Shown here: piece after piece, positions 16,765 through 24,872 of the stretch
How the letters are laid out: every line of letters starts with the position of its first letter
Numbering within the stretch: position 1 is the stretch's first letter
Source: a virus
Lineage: Duplodnaviria > Caudoviricetes
Strand: one strand, 5' to 3'
Length of the DNA stretch: 64,000 bases
IMG/VR virus record: IMGVR_UViG_3300030104_006170
The notes under the pieces: model-generated
What the model saw: the letters and a program-made list of their open reading frames with translations, nothing else
Databases searched by the model: none
Told to the model about the DNA's origin: nothing
Made by a program: the position numbers and the translations under genes

Positions 16765-17657
16765 TGAAAAACTTAATTAGAAAAATTTTAAAAGAAGAAG
16801 TCTTAGATATCACAGACATTCAAGATGAATTACTAATGATGCCTTTAGATGCTCGTCAAAAACTACGTGATGATTTAACCGATACAGTTAGTATGAATGC
16901 TGAAGAAGAATATACGGACATAGACGAACAAATATCCTATAAAGGTATACCAGAAATTAAAGCGAAAACTACAATAGGAAAATTATTAAAGTGGGTTAAA
17001 CGTTATATCACTGATAAAGCAACTAATTTTTTAATTAACGCATCAATGGATGAAATTAAACAGACCATTGATATTTTAGATGTGATGGACCCTACTTCTA
17101 CTGTTGGTATATTCACCCCTAAGGCTATGTATCTTGGTGGGGGAATTGATTTTGCAAAAGACGCTGTTTCTTGGAGGACTCAGGTAGAAGATTTTTATGG
17201 TCCTAGTCATGTTGTAAAGGATGAAAGACTACTTACTCTTGTAACAACAGGGGAACTAAGTTATGAAGGGTTGACTCCACCAGTACTTTTAAACCCTATG
17301 AGAGCAGAAACTGTTAGAGAAGCTGATACAGAATTTAAAGATATGTTTAAAAAATGGAAATCTAACGAATTAACACCAGAAGAATTTAAAATATTTCAAG
17401 AAAAAATAAGGGAACAAATTGTACACCAAGATTTATATATGTTACAAGTATGTGATACTAATCTAATTAACTTTGATGGTACAGCTGGAGCTGGTACATT
17501 TGGTGAAGCTCAGGTGTCAGCACTTAAAAATCAACAAGTATTTTTATGGTTAACTAATGGTATGAAATTATCAAACGTTTCTCCTTGGTTGTTACCTTCG
17601 GTTACTAAGGTTCTTATTGATGATGAATTGTGGCCTTTCTTGGGTAACTTTAAGTAG
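16764..17657 (+). CDS. Nucleoside 2-deoxyribosyltransferase / dNMP N-hydrolase-like protein with an N-terminal extension
   Basis: MYLGGGI..WRTQVE..LLNP..IVHQDLYMLQVCD..GAGTFGE fits the NDT/Rcl/DNPH1 fold pattern. Confidence 0.65.
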   Translation: MKNLIRKILKEEVLDITDIQDELLMMPLDARQKLRDDLTDTVSMNAEEEYTDIDEQISYKGIPEIKAKTTIGKLLKWVKRYITDKATNFLINASMDEIKQTIDILDVMDPTSTVGIFTPKAMYLGGGIDFAKDAVSWRTQVEDFYGPSHVVKDERLLTLVTTGELSYEGLTPPVLLNPMRAETVREADTEFKDMFKKWKSNELTPEEFKIFQEKIREQIVHQDLYMLQVCDTNLINFDGTAGAGTFGEAQVSALKNQQVFLWLTNGMKLSNVSPWLLPSVTKVLIDDELWPFLGNFK

Positions 17658-18954
17658 TTCTCTCCCCATCATACACATGTTTTACAACGGGAAATCTTAA
17701 TGAGTGACAACCATCCTGGTTAAGGGTTTCTTCAAAGTATTGTACTGTAATTGTTTTTCCGACTAAACTGTCTGGGTGGAAATCAGGAACATAATACATT
17801 CTTCTTTCTTCATGGTCAAAACCAGAACCTACTCTTACTTCACAACCCTTATGTTCTATTATAACGTTACTTAACATTTCTTCTTCTACTTCTAAACCAT
17901 CTACAATAATTCTGTGAACCGCAACTTCAACACCTTTTACCACATATTCTTCATCAAAGAACTTTTTAACTTTTAATAAGTCATTACTTCTTTTTCCTTT
18001 ATATTCACAATCTTTACGTAACATTAAACCTTCCCAATTATTTTTAGTTGCTAGTTCTGCCAACTCTTGAAAGTGTTCATCCGACTCTACTTTCCATTGT
18101 TCTAACATTTCTATACAATTTAGTTTAGGTCTAACACAAGTACTTAATCTTAAACTTAAATTTCTTGTACTGGTTTGTGTGTCAAATTCTTCTAGTGTAA
18201 GATAATCAAATATTTTATATTTAGGGTTTTCAATGGTGTGGTCTTTTCTTTTAATTTCCTTCATAATCCCTTGGAAGTCTTCTACACCATTATCATCCAC
18301 AATACATACCTCACCATCAAATACAACATTAGTTAGTTCTAAACTCTCTATTTCTTTTCTAAGGGTAGCTAAAGTATCAAATGTCTTACCTTGTCTTGAA
18401 TAGAAATTACATTCACCATTTTCATCTACTATCGCTAAACATCTTACACCGTCTAACTTTTGGGAGGCGAACCAAGTTTGTTTATTAAAATCAACTTTAC
18501 CCTTTTGTTTATCATAAGAGTTAGCTAGTGCTACCTTGAAAGTAGGGACACATTTTGGAATTGCTTTGTTGATTAGGTCCGCTCCCGTTCTTGTCTTTAA
18601 GTTTTTATCTAAAATACAGAATATTAAATCTTTTTGCCAATCCTGCATAGCGGTAATGTAACCTTTGGTATACTGGATTGCGTCATGTCCTGTTATCGTA
18701 CGTTTACTTAATGCGTCCAACAAATAAAACAAATCATTATAACCTATTTTAGATTCTAATTTTTTATTCTTCTTTACTGTTGTACTAGTTAAGTGGAATT
18801 GTTTGAATGGTGAATATGTGTATTTTAAAACCTGGTTAATCAGATAGTCATCCTTGTACTCTTTAATAATATCAATCTTATCATTAGTTGAGTTGGTGGC
18901 TTTTAGTTTATCCACAAATTCTTGTATTCTTTTTAAATCTTTGCTTTCGTTCAT
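17650..18954 (-). CDS. ATP-dependent DNA ligase
   Basis: Motif I QKLDGVR, VFDGE, IFD, WEGLMLR, LLKVKK, OB-fold VGSGF and SLRFP. Confidence 0.95.
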   Translation of the reverse strand: MNESKDLKRIQEFVDKLKATNSTNDKIDIIKEYKDDYLINQVLKYTYSPFKQFHLTSTTVKKNKKLESKIGYNDLFYLLDALSKRTITGHDAIQYTKGYITAMQDWQKDLIFCILDKNLKTRTGADLINKAIPKCVPTFKVALANSYDKQKGKVDFNKQTWFASQKLDGVRCLAIVDENGECNFYSRQGKTFDTLATLRKEIESLELTNVVFDGEVCIVDDNGVEDFQGIMKEIKRKDHTIENPKYKIFDYLTLEEFDTQTSTRNLSLRLSTCVRPKLNCIEMLEQWKVESDEHFQELAELATKNNWEGLMLRKDCEYKGKRSNDLLKVKKFFDEEYVVKGVEVAVHRIIVDGLEVEEEMLSNVIIEHKGCEVRVGSGFDHEERRMYYVPDFHPDSLVGKTITVQYFEETLNQDGCHSLRFPVVKHVYDGERTT

Positions 18955-19084
18955 TTTCTTATTTTTATTCTTTCTTCGTTTCTTTGTTTTTCTATTTCTT
19001 TAACTATAGCAGCTCGTACTTCAGCTCTTATTATAGTATTTACGGGTATCCACCTTTCTAGGAGTATATCTATCTCTTTCACAC

Positions 19085-19303
19085 TTATTTCTTTAGTTTA
19101 GTTAATGTCGCACATTTCTCATATTCTTCTGTAGATATGAAATAATCTATCATGGTATCCAAATCTTCATTATCGTAATTTTCTTCTGGGTGGATAAAGA
19201 ATATTGGTATTTTTGATTTTTCCACCAATTCATCCATTGTTTTTTCGCCCACAATTAACTTGTAAGAATTTACTATACCTGTGTTTATAAAGTTATCCAT
19301 CAT
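19085..19303 (-). CDS. Small protein with a UVR-like C-terminal motif (EEYEKCA)
   Basis: DYFISTEEYEKCATL; paralog at 30181-30420. Confidence 0.6.
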   Translation of the reverse strand: MMDNFINTGIVNSYKLIVGEKTMDELVEKSKIPIFFIHPEENYDNEDLDTMIDYFISTEEYEKCATLTKLKK

Positions 19304-19315
19304 ATATTAATTTTT

Positions 19316-19421
19316 AAAAAACAAGGAGGGGGATTCCTTTCTCCTTTAGAGTTCTGCCCAATCTACACCAGCTATGAAATAACTTATTAGTTACCAGACC
19401 CTGTATGCCACCTCCTTGTAT
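19316..19421 (-). ncRNA. Candidate ~100-nt structured RNA or leader switch with its own promoter
   Basis: 9-bp closing helix ACAAGGAGG/CCTCCTTGT, internal TAACT-AATA-AGTTA hairpin, T run, and TATCTTTG promoter at 19426-19433. Confidence 0.6.
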
Positions 19422-19425
19422 AGTA

Positions 19426-19457
19426 CAAAGATAAGGAAAATTAAAGAAATGACCAAA
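19426..19457 (-). promoter_or_regulatory. Bacteroidota-type promoter
   Basis: Minus strand TTTG-N20-TATCTTTG. Confidence 0.75.
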
Positions 19458-19468
19458 CAATAAGGCAT

Positions 19469-19492
19469 AAAAAAAGAGGTGTAAACCTCTCA
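19469..19492 (-). terminator. Intrinsic terminator
   Basis: AGAGG-TTTACA-CCTCT followed by a T run. Confidence 0.8.
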
Positions 19493-19549
19493 CAACATTT
19501 TCAGAACCCTTTTGGTTGGTGAACCTCCGTATACTGAGGCCTACTAATG

Positions 19550-19639
19550 TTATAACGCTAAACTAAAAACAACCACCATCAATACAATGTAAATAATTGG
19601 GGCTATGTCTATTTTTTTTACTTCTTGTTCCATACTCAT
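19550..19639 (-). CDS. 29-aa hydrophobic peptide (MSMEQEVKKIDIAPIIYIVLMVVVFSLAL)
   Basis: Read manually; TATTTAT directly upstream; single TM helix. Confidence 0.65.
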   Translation of the reverse strand: MSMEQEVKKIDIAPIIYIVLMVVVFSLAL

Positions 19640-19683
19640 AAATAGAAGTGGTTGAAGCATTCTATGTTAAGAAATCGTTAAAT

Positions 19684-20589
19684 CTATATTAAATTTAAGT
19701 GTGGTAAAATAGACAGTTCTTTTGCTTTGGACTCCACCATAATATCTACATTATTACCGTATGTACTTGGTAAGTTATTTATGTAGTCTGAGTGTGCTTG
19801 GGGTTTTAATTTTTGATTACTTTCATGTAAAGCTTTAGACTCTGAATAATGTACTACTGGGGTTATTCCCTTAGGCCATGTAGAAATGGCTAACTCAAGA
19901 GCTTCTTGTTCTGTCATGTCACCAGTACAAAACTTATGGTGGTGATAATCAAATACAATAGGGATACCAATACGTTCATGTATATACATTAAATCTTTTA
20001 CGGAATACATTGTTGCCTTATCATCATTCTCAACTGTAAGACGTGTCTGAACTGATTCAGGGAGTAACTCAAAGTTTTTACAGAATCTATCTAGAGCAGA
20101 TTGTTTATCCCCATATACACCATTACAATGTATATTGATTTTATTGTATGGTGTTCTATCTAGACCCAGTAAATCAAATACCTTACCGTGGTTGGTTAGG
20201 TCTGTTATTGTATTTTGTACCACATGTTCTCGGGGTGAAACCAGGACATTGAATGGTCCTGGGTGTGAAGTTAATCTAACACGATTATCTCTCGCGTAAT
20301 TACCACAACTAGAAAGAACAGTCTTGATTCTTTGATATTGGGGTAGGTCTTCTATATTGTACTCAGAAGCCCAAGGAAAAATATCTGACGAGATTCTAAA
20401 AAAATTAATCCCGTTCTCCACATTCCATTTTACTATCTCACATAAATCTCTAGAATTAAGTAGGGAAAGTTCCCCAGCATAGTCTATACCCTTATCTATA
20501 AAGGTTTTTTTAATCATAGACCTATTAGTGGTAATCTTGGGCTTCTGTCCCCCAAGTGTCATATTTATACAAGCATATCCTAAGTTCAT
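19684..20589 (-). CDS. uvsE: UV damage endonuclease
   Basis: LGYACIN, FFRISSDIFPW, RLTSHPG, INIHCNG, RLTVENDD, IPIVFDYHHH, HYSES, AHSDY, DIMVESKAKE. Confidence 0.95.
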   Translation of the reverse strand: MNLGYACINMTLGGQKPKITTNRSMIKKTFIDKGIDYAGELSLLNSRDLCEIVKWNVENGINFFRISSDIFPWASEYNIEDLPQYQRIKTVLSSCGNYARDNRVRLTSHPGPFNVLVSPREHVVQNTITDLTNHGKVFDLLGLDRTPYNKINIHCNGVYGDKQSALDRFCKNFELLPESVQTRLTVENDDKATMYSVKDLMYIHERIGIPIVFDYHHHKFCTGDMTEQEALELAISTWPKGITPVVHYSESKALHESNQKLKPQAHSDYINNLPSTYGNNVDIMVESKAKELSILPHLNLI

Positions 20590-20657: not shown

Positions 20658-21449
20658 TTATCTAGTAATATATAATTTTTGATTTCTAATGTATAGTTTA
20701 CCTACTGGAATTTCAGTTAATTCTCTACCTAGTAAGTCATAAATTTTACCATCATTAATTCTATTAAATGTTAGTTCATTTATTGAAGTTGGTGTCATAT
20801 TAAGTAATACCCATGAAAAACTATTTTGGTCAAATACTAACCACTCTTCTACACTACATACTTCTACTGAACCGTTCTCATAAATATATATATCATAACC
20901 AACTTTTACTGTGTCTGATGTTGTGATTTGTGGAAAATAATCATACAGACCTGAACCTGTATAACAAGTACCACCTCCTGTATATCCAGTACACACACCC
21001 CAATATACTGTCATAGAGTCAGGATTATGAACCATACCTGATGTGTCAAGTCCTATATTAAATCCTTGACTTTGGTCTATCCAATATGTTATTGAGTCAC
21101 AGCAAAAATATGGTTGTTGCATACTCATCTTTAACCACATATTTGCATCCCATATCCAATTTACACAACATGTAGTAGTCGCTCCCATACCATAAGTAAT
21201 ACAAGTTGTCAGTGTATCATAGTTAAATTGGAAGTTATAGACCATATGATATGTACTCATACTATCTTCTTGGAATATCACTCCGTCATTTGATGTTGTT
21301 ACCCAATAATCAATAAAGGTGTTGACTCCAACAACCTCAAAAATAGGTTGATTCTGGGGTCCATTAACAATCATTGAATCACAATAATTTATTTGTGCTT
21401 GTGTTTGTAGTCCAAACATAACTAATAGTGCTAATAAAATTCTTTTCAT
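20658..21449 (-). CDS. Secreted Cys-rich protein with a short T9SS type A-like C-terminal domain
   Basis: Sec signal ending AQ; two related Cys-containing repeats; C-terminal PTSINE..KIYDLLGRE..KLYI. Confidence 0.7.
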   Translation of the reverse strand: MKRILLALLVMFGLQTQAQINYCDSMIVNGPQNQPIFEVVGVNTFIDYWVTTSNDGVIFQEDSMSTYHMVYNFQFNYDTLTTCITYGMGATTTCCVNWIWDANMWLKMSMQQPYFCCDSITYWIDQSQGFNIGLDTSGMVHNPDSMTVYWGVCTGYTGGGTCYTGSGLYDYFPQITTSDTVKVGYDIYIYENGSVEVCSVEEWLVFDQNSFSWVLLNMTPTSINELTFNRINDGKIYDLLGRELTEIPVGKLYIRNQKLYITR

Positions 21450-21516
21450 TTTTTAATTTTTAATTTAATTATTATTTCATATAATAAATACGAAATATAA
21501 ACTTAATTGTCTAGTA

Positions 21517-22047
21517 CTATCTTACTAGTGTAACGTGACCTGTGTAATGTTGGTTGTGTGTCCTAATTGAGTATGTGTAGACCCCTACCTGACAATTCTT
21601 TCCATCCCATGGAATGTTATCGGTTGTTTGATATATAATTTCACCCCATCTATTGTATATAACCATTAGCTCTATATCGTCTTTATCAGCACCGTGAACA
21701 TAAAATGTTTCATTGTAATCGTCCTGGTTTGGTGTGAATGAGTTAGGTACAAATATTTGTAAGTATGGACAATCTTCTACTATTACCTCATGATAAGAAG
21801 TGTCACCATCACATCCAAATCTAGTTGTATAAACAGATATGATATATGTACCTACTGAATCTGGCCACTGTACAGTAATAGAATTATTATTATTGTATAG
21901 TATTTCTCCACCTATTATATCCCAATAATATACCTTATCCGCATCATAACTTACTTGATAATTTTGTGGTGTTATTCCCTCACAATTAGTGTAAGTTTCT
22001 TGAGCAAATAATTGAAGTGGTAGTAGTATATATACTAACCATCTCAT
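21517..22047 (-). CDS. PKD-like plus T9SS type B (gliding motility-associated/CHU_C) C-terminal domain protein
   Basis: Signal ending FAQ; IFVPNSFTPNQDDYNETF..IYNRWGEIIY..WDG..GVYTY..GHVTLVR. Confidence 0.9.
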   Translation of the reverse strand: MRWLVYILLPLQLFAQETYTNCEGITPQNYQVSYDADKVYYWDIIGGEILYNNNNSITVQWPDSVGTYIISVYTTRFGCDGDTSYHEVIVEDCPYLQIFVPNSFTPNQDDYNETFYVHGADKDDIELMVIYNRWGEIIYQTTDNIPWDGKNCQVGVYTYSIRTHNQHYTGHVTLVR

Positions 22048-22048
22048 A

Positions 22049-22588
22049 TTAGTAATGTTGAATTGGTCCTGTAACTGGTCCGTTATTAACTACCACATTT
22101 ATTGTTGTATTACAACCAGCCATAGAATAAGTTAATACGTAATTCCCCACCCCTGTTGATGGTTGGAATGAATTTGCTACTACACCTGTTCCAGACCAAG
22201 TACCTCCTGCAGGTGTTCCTACTAATGGAGTTGTGGGGTCTCCTGGACAGAATGGTCCAATTGCATTCCCATTTAAATCTAGTACAAATACATCTAATAA
22301 TACGGGTGTTCCAGGACAGTTGGCTGCATTGGTTTCAATAACTTCAACAGCGTTTGTAAAAAGTCCACTAACACCTCCCCAATCTACTGTGATTGAATTG
22401 GTTCCTTGTCCTGTTTGTAAAACACCACCACCACCTGTGATAGTCCAGTTATAAGTTGATGTAGGGGTATTAGTAACAAAATACTGTTCACCTACTGCGT
22501 TTGCACATACTGTGTCTGGGTTGATTGTTGTTTGACCGTAAGTCGTTAATCCTATGAGGATTAATAAAACTGTTAAAATTCTTTTCAT
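22049..22588 (-). CDS. Secreted PKD/Ig-like protein ending in PVTGPIQHY
   Basis: Signal ending YGQ; STYNWTITGGG..GQGTNSITVDW; PAGGTWSGTGV. Confidence 0.75.
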   Translation of the reverse strand: MKRILTVLLILIGLTTYGQTTINPDTVCANAVGEQYFVTNTPTSTYNWTITGGGGVLQTGQGTNSITVDWGGVSGLFTNAVEVIETNAANCPGTPVLLDVFVLDLNGNAIGPFCPGDPTTPLVGTPAGGTWSGTGVVANSFQPSTGVGNYVLTYSMAGCNTTINVVVNNGPVTGPIQHY

Positions 22589-22599
22589 AATTTATTTTT

Positions 22600-23160
22600 T
22601 TAATAATGATTTATGTTCGATGTAATGGGTATCACTACTTGAACGGTTCCGTTGTATATTTGATATGCTGGGTCGTTACAACAATTTCCGTTAGCCCAAC
22701 CTCCTGTTGTACAATCATCGAAAACCTCTATACTAATACTTAAATCTTCGTTTGTACATGTTTGTCCAACTGTTATTTGAAAACTGGTGATAAATGGACC
22801 GTTAGAACTGGTTCCCCATCCTGCTGTACCTGCATTTTCAAATCTCCATCCTGGTCCAAAGTTAAACCCTCCGGGGTATGTATGTTGTAAATCCCACAAC
22901 CAATTACCTGTTGAGCCTAATGGATTACCTGGAGCTTGTGTTGGTGTTAGGTTCACCCACCCAATTCCTAGATTGATTTGGATGGCATGTATCCAGTTTA
23001 TATTTATCCCGGTAAAATCTTGTAGTGTATACCACACTGTCACAGTTTGTCCTGGAGAATAAGGACCAGCTGGAGATATAACATGTGACTGATTAATTAC
23101 ACATTGTGAATAGGATGTAAACGACAACACCATTAGTAATATTGTTAATAACTTTCTCAT
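22600..23160 (-). CDS. Secreted beta-rich protein ending in PITSNINHY
   Basis: Signal ending YSQ; resembles N-terminal domains of flavobacterial surface proteins; TATTTAT upstream. Confidence 0.7.
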   Translation of the reverse strand: MRKLLTILLMVLSFTSYSQCVINQSHVISPAGPYSPGQTVTVWYTLQDFTGININWIHAIQINLGIGWVNLTPTQAPGNPLGSTGNWLWDLQHTYPGGFNFGPGWRFENAGTAGWGTSSNGPFITSFQITVGQTCTNEDLSISIEVFDDCTTGGWANGNCCNDPAYQIYNGTVQVVIPITSNINHY

Positions 23161-23438: not shown

Positions 23439-24872
23439 TTAGACCGTAATAGATTCGTATCGAGCGGACCCAATAGTCTCCATCATCATATTATAAGGAG
23501 TAAGTTCCTCACAGCTTAAAATACTTTTCATGATTGAGGGTGAGAACCCTGATACTAATGCTGTTCCCATCTCGTCGAAACGAGTTGGTACATTGTCTTG
23601 TCTACTTTGGATATTCCAGTAAACAATTCCTGGCATTTCGTAACCAGCTTCCTCATACATCCCTTTAATCATTTCTTGTGCAGTTGGATTCCAATCTGAT
23701 ATATCATACATTCTACTACCAATTGCTTCATCAAACTCCATATCCGAAAGGACAAGAACTTTGGTTGGCATCTGTGATAGTGGAACATTATGTTTTACTG
23801 CTTGGTCCAAGATTAACTCAAACGTTGCTTTTAAATCAGTATTCATTCCCCAATCTGCTCTCTCCAGTTGGTCTAACCTATCGGCTAACGAACCTTCAAG
23901 TAATTGTAGTTGTGGTCTCGAAGAGAAGGTTATGAATGCGTTTTTAAATACACCTTCGTTTCTCTCTGAGATATACAGACCCAATGATGTTGACACATCC
24001 ATACAAGTAACTTTACCGTTATTTCCTGCTGATGTAGTCATTGAACCTGAGGTATCAACTACAGGTAACACTCTTTCACTAATTCCTTCCATGTAATTTG
24101 GAAGAGACTCCCATTGTGCTTGTGCAACATCCTTTTCTCCACCATATTTAATGGATTTAGTAATGTCATAAGGGTATATAGCTCCAGAGTTGATAGTAGT
24201 TTTACCATCAACTAAAGCTCTTTTGTACTCCTCATACCTCTCCTCGTCATTCTTCATGAAAGTTTTCTGATACCTTGACGATGCTAGGGACGGAAGTTTC
24301 GAATACTCGATACTTGACCAGTCCTTTGCACACATCTTGGTTTCAACCACATTTGTAAGTCCTACTAATAACTTACGATATTGTTTGGGTGACAATTTTA
24401 AATACCTACGAATAATATTCGCTTTTGGTCCTTTTCTTGGCATCCACTTTGCACATAACCCATCTTGTTTGTCTAACGCAGTTTTAATTATGTGTAAAGC
24501 AGATTCCCAACAATTCATTGTACCCACTAATGTTAATACATCATCCCATCTACCATATTCACTAATTAAGTGAATGTTTTTATGTAGTACTTCTCTGTGG
24601 TTTTCACATAACCATAATAAACAATCTCTGAAGATTTGTCTCTCACCAGCTCCACCACGGACATCACGTGTCCAAAAAATAATTTTAATTGTTGTGAGAG
24701 GGTCTTCATTAAACGCTTTAGAGACTTTGGCGAGTAGTCTCTTCTTATCCATACCTCGCATTGCTCCGATTTGGAAAAAAAGATTGACACAGTGATTTAA
24801 AGAGGATGAGTTTGTACTCATACCATTTTCTGTCATTGTGTCTTTTGTTTGTAAAGCGTCGATTAGATTCAT
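23439..24872 (-). CDS. DUF2828-type TROVE/Ro60-like protein with a vWA domain
   Basis: TENG, RDVRGGAGER..FR, YGRWDD, AKWMPR, YRK, MIDAS VDTSGSM, TFS, NTD, LSDMEFD, YWN, LVSGFS. Confidence 0.85.
   Translation of the reverse strand: MNLIDALQTKDTMTENGMSTNSSSLNHCVNLFFQIGAMRGMDKKRLLAKVSKAFNEDPLTTIKIIFWTRDVRGGAGERQIFRDCLLWLCENHREVLHKNIHLISEYGRWDDVLTLVGTMNCWESALHIIKTALDKQDGLCAKWMPRKGPKANIIRRYLKLSPKQYRKLLVGLTNVVETKMCAKDWSSIEYSKLPSLASSRYQKTFMKNDEERYEEYKRALVDGKTTINSGAIYPYDITKSIKYGGEKDVAQAQWESLPNYMEGISERVLPVVDTSGSMTTSAGNNGKVTCMDVSTSLGLYISERNEGVFKNAFITFSSRPQLQLLEGSLADRLDQLERADWGMNTDLKATFELILDQAVKHNVPLSQMPTKVLVLSDMEFDEAIGSRMYDISDWNPTAQEMIKGMYEEAGYEMPGIVYWNIQSRQDNVPTRFDEMGTALVSGFSPSIMKSILSCEELTPYNMMMETIGSARYESITV

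Follow-up and report, generated by a model that had tools for sequence, protein, structure and literature searches.

A family of structured RNAs between promoter and first gene in uncultured marine Bacteroidota jumbo phages

The DNA analysed here, a 64,000-nt stretch of the IMG/VR virus record IMGVR_UViG_3300030104_006170 (termed "the window"), carries an operon with an ATP-dependent DNA ligase whose promoter does not abut its first gene. What occupies the sequence between them, and what might it do for the genes behind it? A first-pass annotation, made from the sequence without database searches, had proposed a promoter-bearing RNA of ~100 nt with two mutually exclusive folds, a candidate small RNA or attenuator. 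We are highly confident that this sequence represents a real and conserved structured RNA (type 1). It represents a new family of structured RNAs, a genuine one, from marine Bacteroidota jumbo phages that are uncultured; a sister RNA (type 2) is found in the same slot in related phages. To our knowledge, few structured RNAs from phages of Bacteroidota have been described.

Gene neighbourhood and phage lineage

The genes around the element are all encoded on the minus strand (Table 1). The intrinsic terminator upstream of the promoter, which is kept in the related loci L008, L091, L095 and L101, isolates the element and its downstream genes as a unit. The first-pass annotation had located the RNA just upstream of the genes for a UVR-microprotein and a ligase. 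The position is correct, with a 72-aa protein (p72), a 43-aa ORF and the ligase following in this order, but the label "UVR" is without Pfam support, as the 72-aa protein belongs to no Pfam family. Its 133 homologous clusters are, without exception, from marine metagenomes.

The relatives identified through the ligase are IMG/VR contigs as long as 298 kb; one of them (G003) was judged 93% complete. The lineage is one of uncultured marine jumbo phages with Bacteroidota-type promoters. There are no close cultured relatives: the ligase shares no more than 32% identity with GenBank phages, and at the DNA level no GenBank phage was matched.

The gene for the 36-aa peptide is kept in L002, L007, L008 and many metagenome loci. 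It is always located just 5' of the promoter slot, regardless of whether the RNA is present or absent.

Table 1. Coordinates of the element, its promoter and neighbouring features. Positions refer to the window unless preceded by the handle of a related locus (L followed by a number).
Feature	Coordinates	Strand	Remarks
477-aa DUF2828 + DUF7788 (vWA-like) protein	23439-24872	-	~4 kb from the RNA
Four consecutive ORFs (263, 176, 179, 186 aa)	20658-23160	-	signal-peptide-like N-termini
UvdE UV-endonuclease	20589-19684	-	
36-aa membrane-like hydrophobic peptide	19550-19660	-	product starts MLQPLLFMSMEQEVKKIDIAPIIYIVLMVVVF
Intrinsic terminator	19467..19491	-	7-bp stem, 4-nt loop, U7; ends the UvdE / 36-aa-peptide transcript
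-33 element TTTG, Bacteroidota sigma-A-type promoter	19454..19457	-	from sequence; consensus in PMC6847099
-7 element TATCTTTG (TAnnTTTG)	19426..19433	-	20-nt spacer to the -33 TTTG
Type 1 structured RNA, probable +1 (A19421) to end of U tract	19316..19421	-	~106 nt
P1 5' strand ACAAGGAGG	19411..19419	-	partner 19321-19329
P2-P3 arm	19365..19408	-	P2: 19408-19401 with 19371-19365; P3: 19395-19389 with 19384-19378
P4-P5 arm	19331..19359	-	P4: GGG 19359-19357 with YCC 19333-19331; P5 hairpin: CUC 19351-19349 with GAG 19343-19341; loop strands CAGAA and AAAGGAA
Internal AAGGAG	19341..19346	-	last three bases are the P5 3' strand
P1 3' strand CCUCCUUGU	19321..19329	-	both arms reported by the repeat search
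U tract	19316..19320	-	five U adjoining P1 (six with the paired U19321); from sequence
A/U-only spacer, U tract to start codon	19304..19315	-	~12-13 nt; without TAnnTTTG promoter
72-aa conserved protein (p72)	19085..19303	-	first gene downstream; invariant TEEYEKC near the C-terminus
43-aa ORF	18951..19082	-	second gene of the unit; homologues upstream of ligase in L005, L007
ATP-dependent DNA ligase	17650..18954	-	Pfam DNA_ligase_A_M (1.7e-20), DNA_ligase_OB_2 (4.3e-9)
Module X, 95 nt	L169:2958-3052	-	
Module Z, ~68 nt	L169:2800-2867	-	
tRNA-like 3' end	L104:1-140; L115-L117 and L120 (~220 nt upstream of p72); L131		

Promoter and leaderless gene starts

Bacteroidota have a promoter type of their own and translate without the use of Shine-Dalgarno sequences. 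The promoter of the element is of this type. On the minus strand, TTTG is followed by 20 nt, TATCTTTG, TACT and then AUACAAGGAGG; the promoter TTTG-N20-TATCTTTG is thus located where the first-pass annotation had placed it, and it conforms to the -33/-7 rule (PMC6847099). Flavobacterium promoters have the G of their -7 element at position -5, and transcription starts 4-5 nt further on (PMC6847099). Based on this spacing, we infer that transcription starts at A19421, so that the 5' strand of helix P1 begins at +3. The window has no excess of sigma-70-type promoters (96 compared to 94.8 expected).

The promoter sequence (T)TATCTTTGTAsyAT recurs in the relatives, where it abuts leaderless ATG or GTG starts. 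In L008, L002 and L007, the 36-aa gene is followed by the terminator and the promoter, then by 4 bases and the ATG of another ORF. In the window, TAnnTTTG-N4-ATG occurs at UvdE (20601/20589) and at three further sites (28296, 31430 and 38157, all on the minus strand). At the UvdE junction, a terminator (20634-20609) precedes TATATTTG-TAAT-ATG. Judged from their sequence, early genes with this succession of terminator, TAnnTTTG, 4 bases and ATG look like leaderless mRNAs. The genes of Flavobacterium johnsoniae are mostly leadered (PMC6847099). At the element, an AUA at +1 takes the place of the leaderless AUG of the relatives.

Conserved fold of the type 1 RNA

The window sequence alone folds no better than expected by chance (minimum free energy, MFE, -27.4 kcal/mol; z = -0.41; 64 of 200 shuffled sequences fold as well), and therefore the case for a structured RNA rests on conservation and covariation in the relatives. 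The first-pass annotation had proposed covariation across relatives as a check. In alignment A2, which is small and comprises 10 distinct type 1 sequences, RNAalifold predicts a three-way junction with helices P1 to P5, and the pairing is conserved. Five pairs, distributed over P1, P2 and P3, are changed on both sides and still paired, with each such event being carried by one or two sequences; the mean for shuffled alignments is 1.5, and none of 500 shuffles equals the observed number. When the partner strands were slid against each other as a control, only 0-1 double-sided pair changes were obtained.

P1 is formed by ACAAGGAGG and CCUCCUUGU, as had been read from the window; it has 9 bp and covaries at alignment columns 7:105 (GU/GC/AU) and 8:104 (GC to UA). 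The helix had been considered extendable, which is not the case, as the next opposed bases are mismatched on both flanks (U19410/C19330 and U19420/U19320). P2 shows compensatory changes in L113 (C-G to U-A) and L129 (G-C to A-U), and two pairs of P3 covary. P5 is variable in length and is extended in L113 and L121 to a covarying 5-bp hairpin (CAUGU/ACAUG vs. CGUGU/ACACG). The consensus fold is the MFE structure in 8 of the 10 homologues. Its consensus energy is -26.1 kcal/mol for the sense strand compared to -18.7 kcal/mol for the antisense strand, and several of its pairs are G-U pairs, so that the fold is that of the minus-strand transcript.

About 45 positions in the junction and the loops are unpaired and yet invariant across the homologues. 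Among the invariant internal loop and junction residues are GGUCU/UCAUAG, which forms the internal loop between P2 and hairpin P3, as well as AGAUU and CAGAA/AAAGGAA.

P1 also contains a Shine-Dalgarno-like sequence. A reading of P1 as a Shine-Dalgarno/anti-Shine-Dalgarno pairing was rejected: L113 has lost the sequence (ACAAAUAAG), L121 and L129 have weakened versions of it, and type 2 lacks it altogether. We treat it as a coincidence.

An alternative pairing with the 3' strand of P1

The second of the two folds in the first-pass annotation was a local hairpin, in which the internal AAGGAG (19346-41) pairs with CUCCUU (19328-23), and the two folds had been taken as the states of a terminator/anti-terminator switch. 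The complementarity ahead of the U run is indeed present. It is not significantly conserved, since 46-59 of 500 shuffles reach the observed level. Nor does either fold qualify as an anti-terminator: both 5' partners use one and the same 3' strand, which adjoins the U run, and thus a stem is placed before the U tract in either case.

We consider a switch between P1 and this hairpin to be very unlikely. It is true that 93% of the alignment cells can pair, that in L129 and L113 the internal segment and the 3' strand have changed in concert, and that the local hairpin might be the first to form as the RNA is transcribed. However, it competes with the conserved P5 and has no equivalent in the type 2 RNAs of the same slot. 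The alternative helix is broken in L093 (AAUGAG) and L121, and its 5' strand belongs to the longer, covarying P5 in L113 and L121. Enforcing the alternative costs 6-14 kcal/mol relative to the P1 state in 9 of the 10 homologues, the exception being L113 (forced P1, -16.0; forced alternative, -18.1; MFE, -19.4 kcal/mol).

Distribution among relatives

A metagenome scan for the context of the 72-aa gene returned 48 loci, in which p72 is preceded by one of four upstream architectures: type 1, type 2, no element, or another ORF directly upstream. Type 1 is found before p72 in L091, L092, L095, L100, L101, L113, L121, L129 and L130, and before a gene for a HAD-like protein (which starts with MNIYLFDFDNT) in L093 and L094, which sums up to 11 homologous metagenome loci. 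Type 2, which is shorter (~80 nt) and has a different structure, precedes p72 in L097-L099, L103, L106, L107 and L122-L124, and the homologous HAD-like gene in L177. A variant of type 2 with wholly different P1 and P3 sequences is found in ten IMG/VR contigs (L169-L178), where a 59-aa ORF follows it. The element is absent from ~17 loci, where the promoter abuts an ATG or GTG; in L226, the HAD-like gene has a plain 28-nt leader. The element is thus accessory, with a cassette-like distribution, and it is not tied to the ligase operon, given that other phages have it before the HAD-like gene.

No TAnnTTTG separates the element from the following start codon in any of the five contexts examined (type 1 before p72 or the HAD-like gene; type 2 before p72, the HAD-like gene or the 59-aa ORF). 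The downstream genes must therefore be transcribed by read-through from the promoter of the element. At least four U follow P1 in every copy of type 1 and type 2. In three type 1 copies (L093, L113 and L121) and in several type 2 copies, the tract consists of only UUUU followed by A.

The type 1 RNA is more highly conserved than its surroundings: in L100 and L129, the RNA shows 87-94% sequence identity, compared to 68-79% for the adjacent gene and 57-70% for the upstream DNA.

In L091, the 72-aa gene is identical to that of the window at the nucleotide level (100%), but the RNA differs at five positions (95% identity), several of which are located in helices. This suggests recombination or a quicker turnover at the element boundary.

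The covariance model for type 1 (R1) scores 136 bits for the element, which is its sole copy in the window. Searches with R1 and the type 2 model (R2) covered the window, ~220 loci and five records of related jumbo phages, and found no further copies. Three matches with 21-23 bits were dismissed as chance matches; they are antisense within a 620-aa ORF. A 16-mer from type 1, which was searched in IMG/VR, and a pattern combining promoter and clamp gave only chance matches, while a type 1 24-mer is absent from 185,579 species genomes. The type 2 pattern had 32 matches in the same 185,579 genomes, all of which were rejected as chance matches. There was no match among that part of the candidates from 35 Flavobacteriales-order genomes which was scored, and GenBank phages did not match the element.

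The type 2 RNA and associated modules

Type 2 was analysed with a small alignment of 8 sequences (A3). It has a P1 of 12 bp and a hairpin of 6-7 bp, which are fully compensated between the copies linked to p72 and those of the L169 type. A total of 12 pairs are changed on both sides, a number equalled by none of 500 shuffles. The invariant core consists of UAAAUAGUCAGUCGGCAAAAGAC, the hairpin and UACUGCAGAACA. In L169-type copies, the U run is located inside an outer ACAAGU/ACUUGU pairing.

Two features are common to type 1 and type 2. One is the clamp ACAAG(G)/(C)CUUGU, which is also present in the L169 variant. The other is GCAGAAC, positioned opposite an AAA-rich strand beside a helix. That this 7-mer is shared by chance is possible, although we would not bet on it; for this reason, homology between type 1 and type 2 is only a lead.

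In the L169-type leader (L169-L178), the type 2 RNA is flanked by two more structured-looking modules (Table 1). Module X has a three-way fold (-21.4 kcal/mol) in which AAUAAGGU and ACCUUAUU form the closing pairing; contigs of the L169 type contain it and those of the L171 type lack it. Module Z is closed by GGGGAUGG/CCAUCCC. The copies of each module are identical, and neither module has a match in Rfam. The tandem arrangement of the L169 type looks more like a cluster of RNA genes.

Searches against known RNA families

In the first-pass annotation, the ~100-nt RNA had not been matched to a riboswitch or ribozyme; in line with this, Rfam 15 has no gathering-level match anywhere in the window. 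At E <= 10, the region 19200-19700 has only noise on the plus strand (the best being 6A, with 21.9 bits compared to a threshold of 41.2) and nothing on the strand of the RNA; the type 2 loci are likewise without a match. ARAGORN detected neither a tRNA nor a tmRNA in the window or in ten related loci.

Several candidate identities were rejected. Pistol and hammerhead ribozymes have a by-eye likeness to the RNAs (AAAUAG in type 2, CUGAUAA in some type 1 copies) without a model match, and the window has CUGGUAA. A tRNA-like nature of type 2, for which UAGUCAGUCGG resembles a D-arm by eye, has no support from ARAGORN or Rfam and is a lead only. For a Y RNA/YrlA with a Ro-like partner, there is no Rfam match to Y_RNA or YrlA even at E = 10 (nor is there one to tRNA), and the nearby DUF2828/vWA protein does not co-occur with the RNA.

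Comparison with known regulatory and stable RNAs

Intrinsic terminators usually have loops of 3-8 nt and strong pairs beside the U tract. The element shares with them that the 9-bp P1, with 5 G-C pairs, adjoins U5-6 in the window. It is unlike them because its "loop" is a folded domain of ~80 nt and because the stem has a weak base (ACAA/UUGU). The terminator scan misses the element because of the ~80-nt loop but does call the conventional hairpins at 19491-19474 and 20634-20609.

With transcriptional riboswitches the element shares an aptamer-like fold with five helices supported by covariation, but it is devoid of a conserved terminator/anti-terminator pairing, and its downstream genes (p72 and ligase, HAD-like, 59-aa ORF) are functionally mixed, which is unlike typical riboswitch regulons. 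The succession of a covarying 5' domain, a stem with U tract, and genes without a second promoter is common to riboswitches and to leaders of the r-protein, PyrR and TRAP type. In contrast to these leader attenuators, the element has no separate expression platform, and its closing helix is the sole stem before the U tract.

Among stable RNAs with paired ends (tRNA, RNAs C and D of T4, Y RNA/YrlA, 6S RNA), the features shared with the element are a clamp helix that closes a multi-helix junction, a U run at the 3' side and a phage-borne gene. Unlike tRNA, it has no T-loop and no anticodon loop of 7 nt.

Two phage systems invite comparison. Promoter-early stem-loop (PeSL) cassettes of T4-type phages are short conserved modules of early promoter and terminator around small exchangeable units in a hyperplastic early region. 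They resemble the junctions of terminator, promoter and leaderless ATG in the window (20634-20589), and the region 19491-19421 is likewise comparable. Here, however, a structured RNA of ~100 nt takes the place of an ORF as the exchanged unit, and no fresh promoter comes after it. The put RNAs of phage HK022 are cis-acting antitermination signals just after early promoters, which consist of two stem-loops and have neither clamp nor U tract. A plausible likeness is the position right after an early promoter, the multi-helix architecture with conserved loops, and action in cis. There is no similarity in sequence or by model, and the operon is also expressed in relatives that lack the element.

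Mode of action

We tentatively favour a leaky attenuator in the 5' leader which acts in cis and also yields a short stable RNA. The type 1 RNA would be transcribed from +1 of a host-type early promoter. The arms P2-P3 and P4-P5 would fold first, and the emerging 3' strand would then form P1, thus clamping the 5' end directly before the U tract. Some polymerases would terminate at this point and release an end-protected RNA of ~105 nt, while read-through transcripts would carry the A/U-rich spacer and the genes for the 72-aa protein, the 43-aa protein and the ligase. The invariant loops and junction may serve as a docking site for a factor, either a protein or a small molecule, which would set the terminated fraction. 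It counts against an attenuator that P1 ends at the U tract in four weak pairs (ACAA/UUGU) and closes an ~80-nt domain, that no conserved alternative structure (expression platform) was found, and that p72 is expressed from this promoter in many close relatives devoid of the element.

The large loop, the weak base, the tracts of no more than four U in several copies, the varied genes, the dispensability of the element and the tandem modules of the L169 type favour instead a stand-alone stable small RNA, which would act in trans as a protein sponge or decoy. This is a real possibility, albeit a doubtful one. Promoter, clamp and U tract would make up a full RNA gene, end pairing would guard against exonucleases, and the downstream genes would be co-transcribed by read-through. 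End pairing protects tRNA, 6S and Y RNAs, and read-through occurs behind phage tRNA genes. The unit from promoter to U tract is self-contained; it is patchy in close relatives and can be replaced in its slot by type 2, a trait of exchangeable cassettes; and the phage uses terminator-promoter cassettes between its early genes. The genes downstream are functionally unrelated, and L169-type contigs carry the RNA in tandem with two other structured modules. On the other hand, an efficient terminator would silence the ligase operon, as there is no promoter before the next gene in any context. Complementary 10-12-mers, which could indicate targets in trans, occur in the window at about the rate expected by chance, and no partner protein was identified. 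The DUF2828/vWA protein was rejected for this role as it is 87% conserved in G003 (298 kb, 93% complete), which has neither RNA type. An unlikely explanation is that the RNA is a passive 5' stabiliser or insulator without ligand or regulation, whereby a helix at the 5' end and an unstructured A/U spacer for Shine-Dalgarno-independent initiation would turn a leaderless gene into a stable leadered one. Consistent with this, P1 starts at +3, relatives lacking the element are leaderless, and the clamp ACAAG/CUUGU is the one feature common to type 1, type 2 and the L169 variant. A simple hairpin would suffice for such a function, however, and the ~45 unpaired positions have stayed invariant while flanking genes diverged to 68%, which points to a specific fold or binding site.

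Two further explanations dispense with a functional RNA. A DNA-level element, such as a MITE-like insertion, a cruciform or a recombination site, is highly improbable. The terminal inverted repeats of 9-12 bp, the presence or absence at one site and the AT dinucleotide flanking both sides would be in line with it, but there is a single copy per genome, the internal hairpins covary, the G-U pairs confer strand specificity, and a type-specific A/U spacer beyond the repeats is part of the insert. Least credible of all is a small protein gene or its remnant. A leaderless frame of 35 codons is open in the window from AUA 19421 (IQGGG...LLVF) to a stop at 19316-19314, with the AUA located at the position of the leaderless AUG. 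Against this, the 5' end has no AUG, GUG or UUG, the frame is interrupted by an in-frame UAG in L113 and by an insertion of 8 nt in L113 and L121, and the substitutions are paired up in helices without a third-position bias. The element is thus non-coding.

Returning to the RNA itself, it is possible, though far from assured, that type 1 and type 2 represent an undescribed class of phage-borne RNAs which bind a ligand or a protein and are swapped as cassettes downstream of a conserved early promoter. Their shared recognition module would be the ACAAG/CUUGU clamp together with the internal loop in which CAGAA is opposite an AAA-purine-rich strand. Such RNAs might be riboswitch-like attenuators in which the helix closing the aptamer doubles as the terminator, or they might be early decoy or anti-defence RNAs. 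The same promoter and gene with type 1, type 2 or no RNA provide a natural control set, so that the effect on transcription, RNA stability and translation is directly testable. If a ligand, or a protein of host or phage, is bound, the family would represent a new class of regulatory or counter-defence RNAs in abundant ocean viruses; if nothing is bound, it would be one more orphan RNA motif.

Other features of the region

Upstream of the 36-aa gene, several relatives carry what resembles the 3' end of a tRNA (GGTTCGAATCC, then an acceptor strand), with an insert of unusual length (Table 1). ARAGORN calls no tRNA at this feature in L104, L115-L117, L120 and L131. It could be an interrupted tRNA, a tRNA with a long variable arm, or a tRNA-like RNA.

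The DUF2828/DUF7788 vWA protein has no sequence match among solved structures. Between this gene and UvdE, three of the four consecutive ORFs (Table 1) terminate in ...HY or similar; these ORFs may code for secreted or surface phage proteins.
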